Below, piece by piece: positions 8,421-16,910 of a stretch of DNA of 64,000 bases. The notes beneath the pieces were generated by a model that saw nothing but the letters and a program-made list of their open reading frames with translations, was not told the origin of the DNA and did not search any database. Source of the stretch: Candidatus Dojkabacteria bacterium (GTDB lineage Bacteria; Patescibacteriota; Dojkabacteria; J137); the NCBI GenBank assembly GCA_025999215.1, contig AP024679.1, positions 433,082-497,081 of the forward strand. The letters are read 5' to 3'. Position 1 is the first letter of the stretch; every line of letters begins with the position of its first letter. A program made the translations under genes and the position numbers.

Positions 8421-9707
8421 CTATTTAACTTTTTCTATTTGTGCTCCAAGTGTTAAATAAGTTTCAACTAATTCAGGATAACGTCTGCTCAATTGATCTG
8501 TTTCGTCAATTAAGGTTGAAACGCCACTTGCACCAAGTGCCGCTACAAATAAAGCTTTGGCTGAAGCGATAATATTCGGAGCTTTGATTACTGTACCTTC
8601 TAATTTGCTTGGCCCAAAAGTTATCACTCTGTGAGGATCTGCCATTACAACATTTGCTTTAAGTTTTGCTAGCTCTTCTATGAAGTAAAAGCCGTACTCG
8701 TAAAATGAATTATGAAATATTAAACTTCCCTCTGCAAAACATGCAGCGACTACTAGTGATTGTATAGCATCAGGAGGAAATTGTGGCCAATGTAGCGCCA
8801 TAATTTGAAATAAATCTCCTCTAACAGTTTTGTGAGCTTTTAATTTTTGATTTTTAGGAATTATAAGTTTATCTCCTTCGTAGTAAGAGTTAAGATTTAT
8901 TTTTTCAAAGGCAGATCTAATATTTGTCATGTGTTCTGGAATTGCGTTATTTATAGTGAGCTCGCTTCCAGTGACAGCAGCTATTGCCATATATTCTGCG
9001 ATATCTAAATGATCACTTATCACATTCCACTCTGTTCCCTTAAGTTTATCTACACCATTTATCACTAATTTGTTAGAGCCAATGCCTTTAATTTTAGCTC
9101 CCATGCTAACCAACATGTTACATAAATCTTGAGTGTGAGGTTCACAAGCAGCATTGTAAATTTCTGTAACTCCAGGCGTTAGTACAGCCAAATTAATTAA
9201 ATTTTCTGTTCCTGTAACACTTGGAAACCAAGACCAAACTTTTGCGCCTTTTAATTTTTTTGCCTCTAAAAAATAACCTTTTTCTCTTCTGTAAACAGCA
9301 CCAAGTTGCACCATATTATCAATAAAAGCATCCAGTGGCCTTGAACCTAATTTACACCCCCCCGGTATAGGCATTTCAGCTTTTCCAAATCGATGAAGAA
9401 GTGGCGCCATAAACATTACAGAAGCCTTTGCTTTTTGGGATAAATCCTCATCGATTTTATAAGTATTAATACCTTTAGCTACTATTTTCACAGATGTTCC
9501 ATTGTTAAAATACGTAACCTTACCGCCGAGAGTTTTTACAATTTTAAGCATTATTCTTACATCAGAACTTTTAGGAACATTGTGTATGATTACTGGTTCA
9601 TCAGTCAATAAACTAGCTGGAATTAATTTTAAAATTGAATTTTTATTTGGAACTGGAGTAACCTCACCATTTAGTTCTATGCCTCCTTGAATTTTATATA
9701 CAGCCAT
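8421..9707 (-). CDS. murA: UDP-N-acetylglucosamine 1-carboxyvinyltransferase
   Basis: YKIQGGIELNGEV, the PGGCKLGSRPLD active-site Cys loop, and full length of 428 aa. Confidence 0.95.
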   Translation of the reverse strand: MAVYKIQGGIELNGEVTPVPNKNSILKLIPASLLTDEPVIIHNVPKSSDVRIMLKIVKTLGGKVTYFNNGTSVKIVAKGINTYKIDEDLSQKAKASVMFMAPLLHRFGKAEMPIPGGCKLGSRPLDAFIDNMVQLGAVYRREKGYFLEAKKLKGAKVWSWFPSVTGTENLINLAVLTPGVTEIYNAACEPHTQDLCNMLVSMGAKIKGIGSNKLVINGVDKLKGTEWNVISDHLDIAEYMAIAAVTGSELTINNAIPEHMTNIRSAFEKINLNSYYEGDKLIIPKNQKLKAHKTVRGDLFQIMALHWPQFPPDAIQSLVVAACFAEGSLIFHNSFYEYGFYFIEELAKLKANVVMADPHRVITFGPSKLEGTVIKAPNIIASAKALFVAALGASGVSTLIDETDQLSRRYPELVETYLTLGAQIEKVK

Positions 9708-9912
9708 TGATTAAATTTAAAATATTTTAATAATTATACCTTAAAATTAAAAATTACTCTAAAATTTCGAAAGGGGTAGTTAGATAATAACGTTAAAGTA
9801 TTTAGTATTCTAAAATTAAGAAAACCATTTTGCAGTTTTGGCTTTCTATGAGGATAACCAGGCCAGCAGCAAGGTCTATTTGCGCTTGTTGATTTTTTTT
9901 CTAAAATCAATA
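9672..9912. repeat. Direct repeat copy 1 (murA 5' end + promoter region + 3' remnant of a ydeI-like gene)
   Basis: The 146-bp core 9681-9826 matches 12179-12324 with about five substitutions counted by eye. More diverged homology continues to about 9912. The offset to copy 2 is 2498 bp in the same orientation. Confidence 0.85.
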
Positions 9913-10088: not shown

Positions 10089-12113
10089 TTAATCAGGAAC
10101 TTTTTGTAGTAAAAATTCTCTACAGTAAATCCTGGGTGGTTTAGACCAATCTATTTCACCATCAGGTTTGCGCTCATGTAAAATAAAACATCCATATCCA
10201 TATTGCCTTAACCCTATTCTACTGATCACGATCACATTATTTTTTAATTTTAATAGTTCTTTAACATATTTGTGATGCTTACGGGTTGCGTACATATTTT
10301 CATATATTCCATACTTTATACCAAAGTTACATGTGTACACACTAACATGTTTGCCATCCTCACATGCTTTGACATTTAGAATGGGTTCAACTGGTACATA
10401 CTTGAATCCTGCCCTTTTCCAATTATCTACTGCTTGATATACTCTTAACCAAGAAATAAATTCTTCATTTGATATGACTCTTCTATTACTTTTGTTGTCT
10501 AGCTCTTCAGTAATAATTGGGGGCTTTTTCTCTGCTTTTGATATTTCTTTTATTTCTGATTTTTCAAGGTTTTCTATTAGTTTTAATACATCTTTTTCGA
10601 TTGGTTTTCTATTTTTTTCTGGCAGATACTCAAAATTCCAAGCAAACCCAGGCGCAGCTTCTTTTGGTGCCATATCAATAAGTAGTCTAGCTACCTGTAA
10701 TTGATTCCCTTCATGTAAAGATGGGAGTCTAAAAGCGACCTCGTAAGCGGTTCCTTTTGGGTTTACACCCATAAGTAACTTAATGACTGCTAATTGATTT
10801 TTTTCTGACAAGTCCCGAAGTTGCCAAGCCACATTGCGAAGAAATTCGTCATTAATTGCTTTGGGAGCTTTTTCTATAAGTGAAGTAATAATTTCTATTT
10901 GAGTATCTTCTGGTAAACATGCTAAATGGCCAGCGAGGTTCTCAGCAGACTCTTGAGGTGCTTTTTCAACAAGTAGTTTAGCAATATCTCCCCTAATATC
11001 TTCAGATATATCATCAATTTTGTCAGATAACGGGCCTGCCGTTGGATTTATATATTCATCCTTATGTAACATGTACAAAATTTCATTTTTGATTTCTTGG
11101 GGTAATTCTTCAAATTCGCAAATTTCCCGAGCAAGTTCAGGTGCCGCTTCTTTTGGTGCTATATCGAGCAGTAAATTAAAGATATGTATCATTTGCTTTT
11201 CAGAAATAAACTCGCCGACATAAAAAAGTTTTTTAGCAAGTTCAGGTGCAGCTTCTTTTGGTGCTTTCTCTAGAATTAATTTTAATATTTCCATTTGAGC
11301 TTTTTCTGGTAAATATATGGCCTGATTTGCAAGCCCTGGTGCAGCTTCTTTAGGAGCTTTTTCTATAAGCTTTTTTGCGAAGTCTGCTCTAACTTCTTCT
11401 GGAAGGTCATTAATACCCCAGGCAAGTTTAGGTGCAGCTTCTTTTGGTGCTATATCGAGAAGCTTGTTTGCAAAGTCTACTCTTGTTTCTTTTGGAAGAT
11501 AAGAAACACTCCAGGCAATTTCAGGTACCGCTTTTTTGAGGGCTACATCAAACAGTAAATTAACAATTTGTTTTCTATTTTCGTATGGAAAAGATTCTAT
11601 GGAGCTAGCGATTACTGGAGCCGCTTCTTTGGGGGCATTCTCTAGGAACCAAGGTAATGCTTCTCTTTTAACCTCTGATGGGAGGTACTTAAAATTTTCA
11701 TATTCAGCTATTGCAGAAGTCACTTTTTTTAAATTTTTCTCCTTTATATGTTTTAAGAGCATTTTACAGATTTTTGTAAAAACTGCTGGTTCAAGAAGGC
11801 GATACAAATCTGAAATAAAGTTAGCAAGTTTAACCCCAGCTTCCTCTGGAGCGATATCTAAAATCTCTTGGGTTTTTTCGAAATAATCTCCTTGTTGACT
11901 ACATAGTGATAACATCGCATCAGTTATTTTAAAGTTTATTGGATCATTTTCGATAATGTTCTGGTATTGCCTTTCTAAATTTTCAACTATTTTTTGAAAC
12001 TCATCCTGGGACCATTTAGGTGCACCTGGCAAATGATACATTTCATAGTTTGCTATCATGTTGCGTGCCGTTTCACTTAAACTTGAATTAATTGAGGAAG
12101 TATTTTGTGACAT
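10089..12113 (-). CDS. 674-aa tandem-repeat (alpha-solenoid/HEAT-like) protein with unassigned C-terminal domain
   Basis: About a dozen units of roughly 31-36 aa of the form L(I/L)(E/D)xAPKEAAPxLAxxxxxLPEExxxxxxxxL. The only gene lying between the two direct repeats. Confidence 0.7.
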   Translation of the reverse strand: MSQNTSSINSSLSETARNMIANYEMYHLPGAPKWSQDEFQKIVENLERQYQNIIENDPINFKITDAMLSLCSQQGDYFEKTQEILDIAPEEAGVKLANFISDLYRLLEPAVFTKICKMLLKHIKEKNLKKVTSAIAEYENFKYLPSEVKREALPWFLENAPKEAAPVIASSIESFPYENRKQIVNLLFDVALKKAVPEIAWSVSYLPKETRVDFANKLLDIAPKEAAPKLAWGINDLPEEVRADFAKKLIEKAPKEAAPGLANQAIYLPEKAQMEILKLILEKAPKEAAPELAKKLFYVGEFISEKQMIHIFNLLLDIAPKEAAPELAREICEFEELPQEIKNEILYMLHKDEYINPTAGPLSDKIDDISEDIRGDIAKLLVEKAPQESAENLAGHLACLPEDTQIEIITSLIEKAPKAINDEFLRNVAWQLRDLSEKNQLAVIKLLMGVNPKGTAYEVAFRLPSLHEGNQLQVARLLIDMAPKEAAPGFAWNFEYLPEKNRKPIEKDVLKLIENLEKSEIKEISKAEKKPPIITEELDNKSNRRVISNEEFISWLRVYQAVDNWKRAGFKYVPVEPILNVKACEDGKHVSVYTCNFGIKYGIYENMYATRKHHKYVKELLKLKNNVIVISRIGLRQYGYGCFILHERKPDGEIDWSKPPRIYCREFLLQKVPD
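10640..11860 (-). repeat. In-frame coding tandem repeats (about 93-105 bp period) inside the 674-aa gene
   Basis: The recurrent DNA motif ggtgc(a/c)gcttcttttggtgc (reverse complement of APKEAAP codons) occurs near 10655, 11145, 11240, 11335 and 11430, with degenerate copies elsewhere. Confidence 0.8.
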
Positions 12114-12165: not shown

Positions 12166-12408
12166 CATCTAACTCTACGCCTCCTTTAATTTTGTATACA
12201 GCAATTGATTAAATTTAAAATATTTTAATAATTATACCTTAAAATTTAAAATTACTCTAAAATTTTGAAAGGGGTAGTTAGATAATAACGTTAAAGTATT
12301 TAGTATTCTAAAATTAAGAAAACCTTTTTTTCATTTTGGATTTCTGTGAGAACAACTAGGCCAGCAATAAGATGTTTTTGCACCTGTAGATATTTCTTTT
12401 TCTAAAAG
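12166..12408. repeat. Direct repeat copy 2 (dead murA 5' remnant + promoter copy + ydeI-like 3' end)
   Basis: Contains ATT GCT GTA TAC AAA ATT AAA GGA GGC GTA GAG, versus murA ATG GCT GTA TAT AAA ATT CAA GGA GGC ATA GAA. The upstream block is the same as in copy 1. Confidence 0.85.
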
Positions 12409-12708: not shown

Positions 12709-12784
12709 TGGTGCCGAGGGGCGGACTCGAACCGCCGACACCACGATTTTCAGTCGTGTGCTCTACCAACTGAGCTACCTCAGC
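12709..12784 (-). tRNA. tRNA-Phe (anticodon GAA), CCA encoded
   Basis: The reverse complement reads GCTGAGG TA GCTCAGTTGGTAGAGC A CACGA CTGAAAA TCGTG GTGTC GGCGGTTCGAGTCCGCC CCTCGGC A CCA (76 nt). Confidence 0.95.
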
Positions 12785-14019: not shown

Positions 14020-14682
14020 GTGAGTAATGAAAAAATTAAACAAAAGGCAAAAAAGGTTAATGCGTTGTTAAAAAAAGAATACCCTATAGTTAAAACTCCT
14101 TTGCACCACAAAAATGCCTGGGAACTTTTAATTGCAGTTATATTGTCAGCTCAAACTTTAGATGAAACGGTAAACAAAGTTACTCCAAGGCTTTTTAAGT
14201 TATACAATTCATGTTATGAATTAGCTGGGGCTAATTTGGCTGAAGTAGAAGAAGTTATAAAAGGCGTAAATTATTATAAAACCAAAGCCAAAAATATTAT
14301 CAAGACATCTCAAAAGCTAGTAGAAAATTTTGATGGTAAAGTACCAAATAAAATTGAAGAATTAACAACTCTTCCTGGTGTTGGTAGAAAAACTGCCAAT
14401 GTTATAATAAACGAGTGGTTTTGTAGGCATGATCAGAAAGTTTTACCTCAGGGATTTGTTGTTGATACTCATGTAGCTAGGGTTTCAAAGCGTTTAGGTT
14501 TTACTAAGCATTCTGATCCTACTTAAAATTGAGCAAGATTTAATGAATTTGTTTGATCAGATCTGATTGGCCTGAGTTGAGTTTGAGATTGATTTTTCAC
14601 GGGAGATATAGGTGTACCGCTCGTCAACATTTATGTTGTGAGCATGATAGATTGGAGTAAACTTTGTCAATGTTTATGTTAA
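14020..14682 (+). pseudogene. nth: Endonuclease III (Nth), frame-disrupted in its C-terminal third
   Basis: The HhH-GPD core is intact (LIAVILSAQTLDETVNKVT, LPGVGRKTANVI, VDTHVARVSKRLG) up to the stop at 14524-14526. The homologous sequence continues as KIEQDLMNLFDQ and then SDWPELSLRLIFHGRYRCTARQHLC in two other frames. The 4Fe-4S Cys spacing is not intact. Confidence 0.8.
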
Positions 14683-14686
14683 CATT

Positions 14687-15963
14687 ATGGAATTTAATTT
14701 AGTTTCTGAGTATAAACCTGCTGGTGATCAACCACGAGCGATTGATACGCTTTCTAATGGTTTGCTTGCTGGGAATCAAGCACCAAACGCTTGGTTGGTG
14801 CGACCGGAACTGGTAAAACTTTTACAATGGCAAATATCATACAAAATCTTGGGAAACCTGCTTTAATTCTTTCTCACAACAAAACTTTAGCTGCTCAATT
14901 GTTTGCTGAATTTAAAAAATTTTTTCCTTACAATGCTGTTGAGTATTTTGTGAGTTACTACGATTATTATCAGCCTGAGGCTTATGTTCCCTCAAGAGAT
15001 TTGTATATTGAGAAAGATGCCGATATAAACGACACAATTGAGCGGTACAGGTCTTCAGCTAGCCAGTCGCTTTTGACAAGAAAGGATGTGATTGTAATTT
15101 CAACCGTTAGTTGTATCTATGGGCTAGGGAATCCTGCAGATTATTTAGAATTAAGTTTTGAATTTAATGTTGGGGAAAGTTATAAACGCGATAATATTTT
15201 AGCGCGACTAACAGATATGCAGTATGAAAGAAACCAACTTGATTTCATGCCTGGGAGTTTTAGAGCCATTGGTGAGATTATTGATATTTATTTAACAAAT
15301 GCAAATGATGAAGCTGTAAGGTTAGAGTTTTTTGGTGATGAATTGGAATCTATAAAGATAATTAATCCTCTAACAGGCGAGTTTGTAAAAAATTTAAATT
15401 CAGTTATTATTTTTCCTGCCAAACACTATGTAAGTCCACATCATAAACTAATGGAAACGATTGAAACAATAAGAGAAGATATGAAAAAAGAAGTTCAGCA
15501 ATTTTTGGATAAAGGAAAGGTGGTGGAAGCAACGAGACTTAAGCAAAGGGTTGAATATGATTTGGAAATGATTGCTGAAACAGGTTTTGTAAAAGGCATT
15601 GAAAATTATTCTAGATACATTGACAGAAGACCACCCGGAAGTGCGCCATCATGTTTAATTGATTATTTTCCTCATGATTACATTATGTTTATTGATGAAT
15701 CACATATAACTGTTCCGCAAATTGGAGGAATGTACAATGGCGATCGCGCACGGAAACAGAGCTTGGTAGATTATGGTTTTAGGATGAAAGCAGCGCTAGA
15801 TAATCGACCTTTGAAATTTGAAGAATTTGAACAAAAATTAAACCAAGTTATTTACACCACGGCAACGCCAAGGGATTATGAAATTCAGAAAAGCATGAAT
15901 GCAACAGAAGAAATTAGGGAAAAAAGCCCTCAAATATTCAGTGGAAAAATGTTAGAATATTAG
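14687..15963 (+). pseudogene. uvrB: UvrB N-terminal half (about 425 codons) with two single-nt frame disruptions next to the Walker A motif
   Basis: MEFNLVSEYKPAGDQPRAIDTLSNGLLAGNQ (frame a), HQTL (frame c) and VGATGTGKTFTMANII (frame b). The extra bases are about 14780 and 14793. It ends ...TATPRDYEIQKS plus a 22-aa tail and TAG. The rest of UvrB is at 63780. Confidence 0.85.
15953..15958 (+). promoter_or_regulatory. Extended -10 (TGTTAGAAT) 6 nt upstream of the DUF368 ATG
   Basis: aaaTGtTAGAATattagaATG. Confidence 0.35.
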
Positions 15964-15964
15964 A

Positions 15965-16910
15965 ATGAAAATCAAGATTAGAAATATTTCACAAAAGGAA
16001 TGGTGATGGGTCTTGCTGAGGTTATCCCTGGAGTGAGTGGGTCAACCATGGCTTTGGTGATGGGTATTTATGATGATTTCATCAATCTACTCTACTCTTT
16101 TTCAAAGTTGGCGCAAAATTGTGTTGAGTTTTTGTTTCGAAAGAAAAGATTTTTTTGATCTTAAACAAGAGTTGACTGAACTATCTAGAATGGGGTTTTG
16201 CTATACCTTTGTTTTTCGGCATGATTGTGTCAATTTTATCTTTTGCCAATATTTTAAACTATTTCATTGATAAATCACCGGGTTACGTGCTTGCTTTTTT
16301 CTTTGGATTGGTGGTCGCATCGGTGTCAATTCCACTTCAGAGAGTTGGTAAGACCCAACATTTTGAAAGTTCTTTTGTTCTTGCTTCTCTCTTGCTTTTT
16401 TCTATTTTTTGCTTGGAGTTGATCCTATTGAGTTAAACGGTAAGCCAAATTTAGTTTATGTATTTTGTTGGGGGTATGCTTGCCATTTGCGCAATGAGTT
16501 TGCCTGGAATTAGCGGTTCTTTTATTTTGCTATTGTTGGGTTTGTATGAATACATTATTTCTATAATTAAAGATTTGTCTCATTTTAAGTTTAACTTCAG
16601 TGATTTTACTAGGTTGGTTGTTCTTTCTTTTGGTGTGGTGGCTGGATTTGTATTGTTTGTGAGAATACTAAAATGGTTGCTTTCAAAATACGAGGGCGAA
16701 TTGATGGCTTTTCTTGCAGGCTTGATGTTGGCATCGCTAAGAATTTTGTGGCCATTTATCGATAATTCACAGGAAGTTTCGAGAGTTTGGATGCTTATCC
16801 CAAGGTGATGTTAGAGTTAAGTAACACTGAACACCTTGTACACGGTTGCAATTATTGTAGCAAGTGCTGTAGCCGTCTTAGTAATCAAAAAGATTTCTGA
16901 TAAAATTTAA
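15965..16910 (+). pseudogene. DUF368-family membrane protein, fragmented by at least six frame disruptions
   Basis: GLAEVIPGVSGSTMALVMGIYD and AMSLPGISGSFILLLLGLYEY are the duplicated DUF368 signature. The homologous sequence hops between frames near 16000, 16140, 16196, 16400, 16460 and 16805. The C-terminal helix TLYTVAIIVASAVAVLVIKKISDKI ends at 16910. Confidence 0.7.

Follow-up and report, generated by a model that had tools for sequence, protein, structure and literature searches.

HEAT/ARM-type repeats (PF02985, PF13646 and the PBS-lyase HEAT-like repeats) are tandem units of about 30-40 amino acids (aa), each made of two antiparallel helices, that stack as a solenoid. RIO and Bud32, both small kinases, serve mainly as switches driven by ATP. 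Here we describe a bacterial gene whose product appears to join a solenoid of the first kind to a truncated kinase-like domain. It encodes a protein of 674 aa and lies on the (-) strand of a 64,000-nucleotide (nt) stretch of DNA from Candidatus Dojkabacteria bacterium (contig AP024679.1, positions 433,082 to 497,081), the whole of which was analysed and is called the window below. The open reading frame (ORF) is intact, with an ATG start and a stop codon. Its product agrees residue for residue with a protein listed at NCBI as 'hypothetical protein KatS3mg085_430 [Candidatus Dojkabacteria bacterium]', from a contig of 862 kb, so that the window is part of a small genome of ~32% GC from the Patescibacteria, or candidate phyla radiation (CPR). 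The genomes of CPR bacteria are tiny, and for most proteins specific to these lineages no fold or role has been assigned.

The 674-aa protein is a member of a large unnamed family in which an N-terminal motif is followed by HEAT-type repeats and a C-terminal mini kinase-like domain. The predicted active-site motifs that the family conserves are largely lost in this copy, and on balance we think it probable that the protein is a non-catalytic, pseudokinase-type scaffold or binding protein, encoded just downstream of a duplicated murA upstream region and co-expressed with murA. The parts of the gene are as follows.

10089..12113, (-) strand: the whole ORF, comprising N-terminal motif, repeat solenoid and C-terminal mini kinase-like domain, all three of which are conserved in the alignment with the relatives P0002 and P0003.
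11862..12113, (-) strand: N-terminal region, residues 1-84, predicted to be helical and carrying the family-wide motif, NYEMYHLPGAPKWSQDEF in the window protein.
10593..11861, (-) strand: repeat array, residues 85-507, with ~13 APKEAAP-type helix-turn-helix units of 31-36 aa, probably of a diverged HEAT type.
10524..10592, (-) strand: linker, residues 508-530, rich in Lys and Glu and of low model confidence, standing where the family has the beta1 strand and the KTGS glycine-rich loop.
10092..10523, (-) strand: C-terminal domain, residues 531-674, with a predicted truncated protein-kinase-like fold (N-lobe, alphaD, alphaE, catalytic-loop region and beta7-8) that stops at the DFG-equivalent position.
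10188..10208, (-) strand: catalytic-loop equivalent, residues 636-642, where RQYGYGC replaces the family HGHxHxxN with a 3-residue deletion.
10110..10121, (-) strand: DFG equivalent, residues 665-668, where REFL replaces the family IDFD.

An unnamed protein family of the CPR bacteria

Word-indexed protein searches are saturated by the repeat words of this protein and miss most of its relatives; three such searches gave 3, 18 and 2 matches, including the full-length relatives P0002 (36% identity) and P0003 (34%), annotated as Patescibacteria or unnamed. An exhaustive search of 1.84 billion cluster representatives with a profile of the C-terminal (end) domain found 531 matches at E <= 1e-3 and 433 at E <= 1e-10. 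In all 150 of the matches listed, which are from 75 to 812 aa long, the domain stands at the extreme C-terminus, and the window protein scores E 1.4e-69 against the profile of its own subfamily. The N-terminal motif reads LPEYLxMYEISGQDPITEHSFxRYxKDKxQD in the main family, EMFxLPNKPxxT in the subfamily and NYEMYHLPGAPKW in the window protein; a permissive pattern of it matches 115 of 167 family proteins, always inside the first 120 residues. The members are named in their sources as 'hypothetical protein' or 'HEAT repeat domain-containing protein', and every one that bears an organism name belongs to the Patescibacteria (Uhrbacteria, Paceibacterota, Dojkabacteria or 'Patescibacteria group'). 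We found no Pfam, NCBIfam or PADLOC model for the architecture as a whole, and literature searches, within the library covered, gave no description of it. An observation on one subfamily member with APKEAAP-type repeats may be added: P0172 (L118 8001-10215, on a 1-Mb contig) is truncated within the kinase-like domain, and a Transposase_mut gene lies ~0.5 kb downstream of it.

The repeat array and its relationship to HEAT repeats

A hidden Markov model (HMM) trained on five clean units detects 11 within residues 85-507, 8 of them with i-Evalue < 1e-8. Two degenerate units (~116-154 and 349-379) and a further one at 446-476, which was seen in the motif scan only, bring the total to ~13, and the signature AP[KEQ] is present in 9 units by the motif scan. 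The repeats are equally visible in the DNA, where Tandem Repeats Finder reports a period of 93 (2.2 copies, 77% matches) and a repeat finder a 44-nt motif in nine copies of 61-100% identity, mostly 93 nt apart; this periodicity is far beyond chance. AlphaFold2, run for the whole protein on three sequences only, predicts a continuous series of helix pairs over residues 77-526 with a predicted local distance difference test score (pLDDT) of 70-85, while the end domain came out of the same run at pLDDT < 50. When the modelled array was compared with the PDB in Foldseek, only alpha-solenoids were returned (designed repeat proteins, TPR, Sel1 and the HEAT proteins PP2A-A and transportin-3). The low template modelling (TM) scores of these matches are expected, because the superhelical pitch differs from one solenoid to another.

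Are these units HEAT repeats then? The Pfam HEAT models have no match in the window protein at the curated threshold, and P0002 reaches only 18.6 bits with HEAT_2, under the cut-off of 27.7. (The many other matches of P0002, to 2EXR, UBM, FliH and others, were rejected as artefacts in which weak scores are summed over a perfect repeat.) In the wider family, HEAT_2 or HEAT is above threshold in 6 of the 10 members scanned (P0070 with 89.7 bits, P0087 with 46 and P0026 with 44), and the HEAT repeats of these members share the 31-residue period with the units in the window. Direct comparison of double units of the APKEAAP type with those of the main-family type in hhalign gave a probability of 90.9%, P 1.1e-6 and a score of 30.3, against a best score of 14.1 in 30 column-shuffled controls, and placed LPEExRxxIxxLxLEKAPxEAAPxL over APEEERxxLIxxxLxHPNxEVQxxAA. 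The APKEAAP unit itself was present in 13 of the 167 family representatives inspected first, all of them in the closest subfamily, and in two subfamily members found later. Profile comparison and modelling thus support the view that the APKEAAP unit is a diverged HEAT type and forms an alpha-solenoid scaffold.

The original prediction, made from the letters of the window, had described a 674-aa ORF of ~31-aa APKEAAP repeats, with at least 12 copies from residue ~86 to ~490 that recur as a DNA motif, and had suggested a HEAT-like alpha-solenoid. All of this was borne out: the ORF is intact, the HMM units and the DNA period agree with the repeat length, the ~13 units span residues 85-507, and the helical hairpins of the model, the solenoids found by Foldseek and the hhalign match (91% probability, with far lower scores for shuffled controls) all favour such a scaffold.

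A truncated kinase-like fold at the C-terminus

The C-terminal 130-170 aa have no match in Pfam or NCBIfam, scans of the whole protein returning noise, and no kinase turned up when PDB sequences were searched by profile or by single sequence. The fold became apparent from modelling. With a 48-sequence alignment, AlphaFold2 modelled residues 503-674 at a mean pLDDT of 77.9, rising to > 90 through the core, with the secondary-structure order beta-beta-alpha(alpha)-beta-beta-alpha-alpha-beta-beta; residues 519-530 (domain residues 17-28), in the region of beta1 and the glycine-rich loop, have pLDDT < 50 and are predicted to be disordered. Foldseek with this model placed only kinases at the top, VRK1 (E 2e-3, probability 0.99) being followed by ULK2 and others, and two independent structure-comparison methods returned essentially only kinases among hundreds of matches. 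TRIB1, JAK2 JH2 and BPK1 are among the structural matches.

Weak traces of the same relationship are found at the sequence level. At a permissive threshold, the recurrent Pfam matches of the 48 aligned members are all to kinase families and all sub-threshold: Kdo/WaaP in 6 of the 48 (best E 0.004), APH in 2, and OspG and WaaY in 1 each. The weak Kdo match of one member is collinear through the catalytic-loop and DFD region. Moreover, the conserved motifs of the family coincide in the predicted secondary structure with the positions of the G-loop, beta3, alphaC, the HRDxxxxN loop and DFG. We conclude from the models that the C-terminal domain has a protein-kinase-like fold. The domain ends 3-10 residues past the DFG-equivalent position, so that the alphaF-alphaI half of the C-lobe is missing and the domain, at ~145 aa, is unusually small. 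The original prediction that this part of the protein matches nothing recognisable therefore holds for sequence, whereas the predicted fold is of a known type, a truncated kinase-like one, and the domain is shared by a large family.

Predicted active-site motifs of the family and their loss in the window protein

Motif columns were counted over 149 aligned representatives. Near-invariant are K-T-G-S...L-L-G-G at beta1, the glycine-rich loop and beta2; I-I-R-H-I at beta3, with Arg in 96% of the representatives; W..YE in alphaC; and W..GFDYVPIEPI. Directly after alphaE stands H-G-H-x-H-x-x-N-F-C-L (the first H in 148/149, the second H in 143/149 and N in 148/149), and after the last strand P-R-x-Y-x-I-D-F-D-Q-A, in which I and both D are each present in 148/149. 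Judging from its position in the predicted secondary structure, the family His corresponds to the catalytic Asp of kinases, and this equation is supported by individual members that carry canonical residues at the HGH site, namely HRD..N in P0105, HGD..N in P0147 and HED..N in P0014.

The window protein departs from this pattern at nearly every point. It is the sole exception among the 149 at H637Q, N642C, I665R, D666E, D668L, G528E and S529K; the second H of HGH is replaced by Y640, with a 3-residue deletion in the catalytic loop, and the alphaC Glu by Q560, a position at which a few other members also vary. Consequently, of the KTGS..GG loop, the beta3 Arg, HGHxHxxN and IDFD only the Arg is kept, which is unique among the aligned representatives. 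What the protein does retain is the hydrophobic and Pro/Trp core of the fold; the conserved residues still present are R545 (beta3), W555, W565, F570, Y572, P574, E576, P577, I578, P660, R661 and Y663. A frameshift artefact was rejected as the source of the lost motifs: the other reading frames over the altered segments are full of stops, so the loss does not come from an assembly frameshift. The catalytic residue set of protein-kinase-like (PKL) enzymes (glycine-rich loop, beta3 Lys, alphaC Glu, HRD Asp, Asn and DFG Asp) is not found in the window protein, and, going by its predicted fold and motifs, the protein answers to the operational description of a pseudokinase, that is, a kinase fold from which at least one of the VAIK Lys, the HRD Asp and the DFG Asp is absent.

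The duplicated murA upstream region

The gene is bracketed by a direct repeat of 233 nt with 88% identity between its copies. The features of this region are listed here.

8421..9707, (-) strand: murA, which heads the murA-murB-mutL block directly downstream of the 674-aa gene, a synteny shared with the relatives L012 and L017.
9668..9900, (-) strand: downstream repeat copy, containing the working murA upstream region and murA codons 1-13.
12166..12398, (-) strand: upstream repeat copy, 52 nt upstream of the ATG of the 674-aa gene, containing the murA upstream region and dead murA codons 1-13.
12709..12784, (-) strand: tRNA-Phe, 310 nt upstream of the repeat and not overlapping it.

On the same strand the 674-aa gene is followed by murA, murB and mutL; upstream of it lie the tRNA-Phe and, divergently, a gene for a 276-aa hypothetical protein and a tRNA-Val. 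In the upstream copy the murA remnant is dead, its ATG being changed to ATT and a stop following after 18 codons. Conservation between the copies is very uneven: the 119-nt core immediately upstream of the murA start (9708-9826 and 12206-12324) is 98% identical, at the edges the coding remnant reaches only 82% and the distal part 73%, and outside the repeat identity is at background. One 58-nt stretch of this core is present in the window in exactly two places. Between the copies there is no tRNA and no credible ORF besides the 674-aa gene, nor any integrase, transposase or inverted repeat. The core has no match in Rfam and no excess of RNA structure (fold z-score +0.5), which makes it more likely a promoter or operator acting at the DNA level. 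The promoter scan found 20 sites where 13.7 were expected, and scans for promoters and terminators are uninformative in such AT-rich DNA. The core is likely to be a conserved murA promoter or operator, now used twice, or else it has been homogenised by gene conversion. Since the 674-aa gene sits directly behind the copy, it is probably expressed together with murA, that is, with the first step of cell-wall precursor synthesis.

Both copies also keep a short frame, at 12300-12383 (-) and ~9800-9890 (-), which ends in ...GLV(I/V)L..(E)..QN..K.VFLILEY* with conservative substitutions between the copies. This may be what is left of a former gene upstream, from its 3' end, or it may encode a small peptide.

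Proposed role and alternative explanations

We take the 674-aa protein, in which no signal peptide is evident, to be cytoplasmic; it consists of the short N-terminal motif, the ~13-unit solenoid of diverged HEAT type and the ~145-aa kinase-like end domain. The intact members of the family have a set of residues resembling an ATP/Mg site (the KTGS..GG loop, the beta3 Arg, the alphaC Glu, HGHxHxxN and IDFD). By analogy with HEAT proteins and with RIO and Bud32, their solenoid would hold a partner molecule and their end domain would bind ATP and then hydrolyse it or transfer a group from it. In the window protein, binding or scaffolding would be the only part of this role to remain. Both the 2-kb open frame at 32% GC and the conservation of core, repeats and N-terminal motif speak for continued selection on the gene. 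Two points weigh against the proposal. The intact members themselves have His in place of the catalytic Asp and Arg in place of the beta3 Lys, so the family may contain no phosphotransferase at all, in which case 'dead' would need to be redefined; and the use of the murA-upstream copy as a promoter by the 674-aa gene is suggested by its position only.

There is also a bolder reading, to which we would give a small but real chance. The intact family would be a new, CPR-restricted class of minimal kinase-fold enzymes (~145 aa, stopping at the DFG position, with HGHxH and a beta3 Arg), whose chemistry might be other than ordinary phosphotransfer, for example metal-dependent or of the ATPase-switch type. 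The solenoid would bring the domain to its partner, which might belong to cell-wall precursor synthesis, given the Mur ligase, MltG/YceG and Ddl genes beside family genes and the murA-upstream copy in front of the window gene. On this view the window protein would be a naturally inactivated paralogue that regulates the pathway or serves as its decoy.

Could the gene instead be a relic that is turning into a pseudogene and has no function left? Every predicted catalytic motif has gone, nearby uvrB and a presumably DUF368-like gene look broken, as if the genome or its assembly tolerated damaged genes, and P0172 of the same subfamily is truncated, with a transposase gene close by. However, a frame of 2,025 nt would not last long unselected at 32% GC, where stops are frequent and indeed fill the other frames, and the residues of the structural core, the repeats and the N-terminal motif are still conserved. 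The many motif changes also imply that catalysis was lost long ago and that the frame has stayed open throughout. We therefore regard decay as unlikely.

That the window protein is still an active enzyme, be it an atypical kinase, an ATPase or another nucleotide-dependent enzyme with relocated catalytic residues, seems to us quite doubtful. There are precedents, as WNK kinases and some former 'pseudokinases' have moved catalytic residues elsewhere, and here the core of the fold and R545 are kept, the ORF is intact and the model is confident in the core. But at least 7 near-invariant active-site columns are altered together, along with the 3-residue deletion in the catalytic loop, in a combination seen in no other aligned representative, and the region of the glycine-rich loop is predicted to be disordered. 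Compensating conserved polar residues are not identifiable, because no close relative shares the changes.

Origin of the locus

The remaining alternative concerns where the gene came from. The original prediction saw in it the sole cargo of a repeat-flanked insertion, probably accessory and recently acquired, and one can extend this to a mobile-element cargo or a recently transferred accessory gene with a host-interaction (effector-like) role. It is true that a single gene is flanked by direct repeats, with a tRNA-Phe 310 nt away, that helical repeat proteins are common as effectors, and that a Campbell-type single crossover of circular DNA with homology to the murA upstream region would give exactly the order repeat-gene-repeat. 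The gene is also missing from the corresponding place in relatives: in 33 murA loci of related genomes (MurA 45-69% identical) no family member lies within 6 kb of murA, and the neighbours of family genes vary elsewhere. On the other hand, the repeats are host regulatory and coding sequence, the duplicated promoter region and 5' end of murA, and they are not tRNA sequence, in which att sites often lie. The other marks of an integrative element, namely a gene for an integrase or transposase, inverted repeats at the ends and foreign composition, are not found either. GC at third codon positions (GC3) is 0.24 for the 674-aa gene and 0.18-0.26 for its neighbours, and is therefore native. The repeats have diverged to 88% identity overall and to 73-82% at their edges, the nearest full-length homologue found is 36% identical, and the search of IMG/VR found no relative. 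A recent mobile or transferred origin is accordingly improbable, and what survives of the earlier view is the single gene between repeats and an accessory nature, which is plausible given its absence beside murA in the 33 relatives and its unconserved neighbourhoods elsewhere. In this respect a 'repeat protein with an unknown domain on an insertion' has become a defined architecture, and the idea of a recent mobile insertion is corrected. A phage origin was rejected, as no family relative was found among the IMG/VR viral contigs, and so was an anti-phage defence system, as the window protein has no match to the PADLOC defence models, of which P0070 matches only the generic HEAT-ARM model over its repeats.

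The Dojkabacteria relatives L012 and L017 keep murA-murB-mutL, with upstream genes unrelated to the 674-aa family, and what lies upstream of murA seems to vary from genome to genome. In L017 it holds a tRNA-Val and a gene for a 1009-aa hypothetical protein, and in L012 genes for a 383-aa membrane protein and a tRNA-Phe. The 674-aa locus is lineage-specific; the relatives compared are too distant to date the event. Its layout fits either an internal duplication that is old and whose core has been under selection, or a Campbell-type integration of DNA that carried an already diverged homologous segment.

Gene neighbourhoods and neighbouring genes

Six look-ups of the neighbourhoods of family genes showed no conserved partner, the neighbours being ribosomal, tRNA-synthetase and miscellaneous housekeeping genes. 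Over 84 loci (80 metagenome loci included) the commonest neighbour families were Mur ligase (9), YceG/MltG (6), an unnamed 522-aa protein (5) and Ddl (4). One contig set (L058, L060, L064, L065, L067 and L070) has a divergent Mur ligase and a convergent YceG/MltG beside the family genes, and in a second set (L063, L105, L111 and L112) the family genes stand directly downstream of Ddl. Single-linkage clustering merged 49 loci, and independent lineages of these cell-wall arrangements could not be shown. Together with the position next to murA and murB in the window, these neighbours offer a lead towards cell-wall precursor synthesis, to which we give little weight in view of the merged loci and of how common such genes are in small genomes.

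Farther along the window several genes look damaged. In uvrB (14687-15963), which appears broken, one frame (14687-14866) encodes the first ~35 residues and a different frame (14791-15963) the 390 aa that follow, and the expected C-terminal ~230 residues are missing, for which a pseudogene, an indel or an assembly error are all possible. Directly after the truncated uvrB, at 16000-16808, pieces of a membrane protein (MVMGLAEVIPGVSGSTMALVMGIYDDF..., MYFVGGMLAICAMSLPGISGSF...) lie in several overlapping frames; by their motif they are putatively DUF368-like. An endonuclease III-like ORF at 14020-14526 ends abruptly after 168 aa, which suggests a further truncated gene near uvrB.

Comparison with known systems

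With this work an unannotated family of several hundred sequence clusters gains a predicted fold, a HEAT-type solenoid followed by one of the smallest kinase-like domains seen. It raises the hypothesis that the end domain binds a nucleotide and the solenoid a partner, perhaps in connection with murein synthesis, and for biochemistry the window copy, which has lost the signature and yet is intact, provides a natural control against the intact members. Of known kind are the HEAT-type repeats and the kinase-like fold; unusual are the extreme truncation, the HGHxH/Arg signature and the occurrence of named members in CPR bacteria only. From the HEAT/ARM-type repeats described so far the APKEAAP...LPEE unit differs as a distinct sequence type, without a Pfam HEAT match in the window protein.

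The closest comparison for the end domain is with the small atypical kinases, Bud32/PRPK of KEOPS, RIO1/RIO2, Kdo kinase/WaaP (PF06293) and archaeal Ark1/ArkI. The present domain is shorter (~145 aa), with alphaF to alphaI missing, and in the family Arg stands in place of the beta3 Lys and His in place of the catalytic Asp (HGHxH). Unlike those kinases, the domain shares its polypeptide with a HEAT solenoid, is not recognised at threshold by any Pfam or NCBIfam model and, in the window copy, is without the catalytic residues. The PIKKs (phosphatidylinositol 3-kinase-related kinases such as mTOR and ATM), SCYL1 and Vps15 resemble the protein in architecture alone: the sequences are unrelated, the order and size of the domains differ, and the present domain is minimal and bacterial. 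With the pseudokinases Tribbles, JAK JH2 and Toxoplasma BPK1 the window protein would share a kinase fold that is kept while the residues of the G-loop, the catalytic loop and DFG are lost. Those proteins belong to unrelated lineages, whereas here the loss is seen in a single member of a bacterial family that otherwise conserves its motifs.

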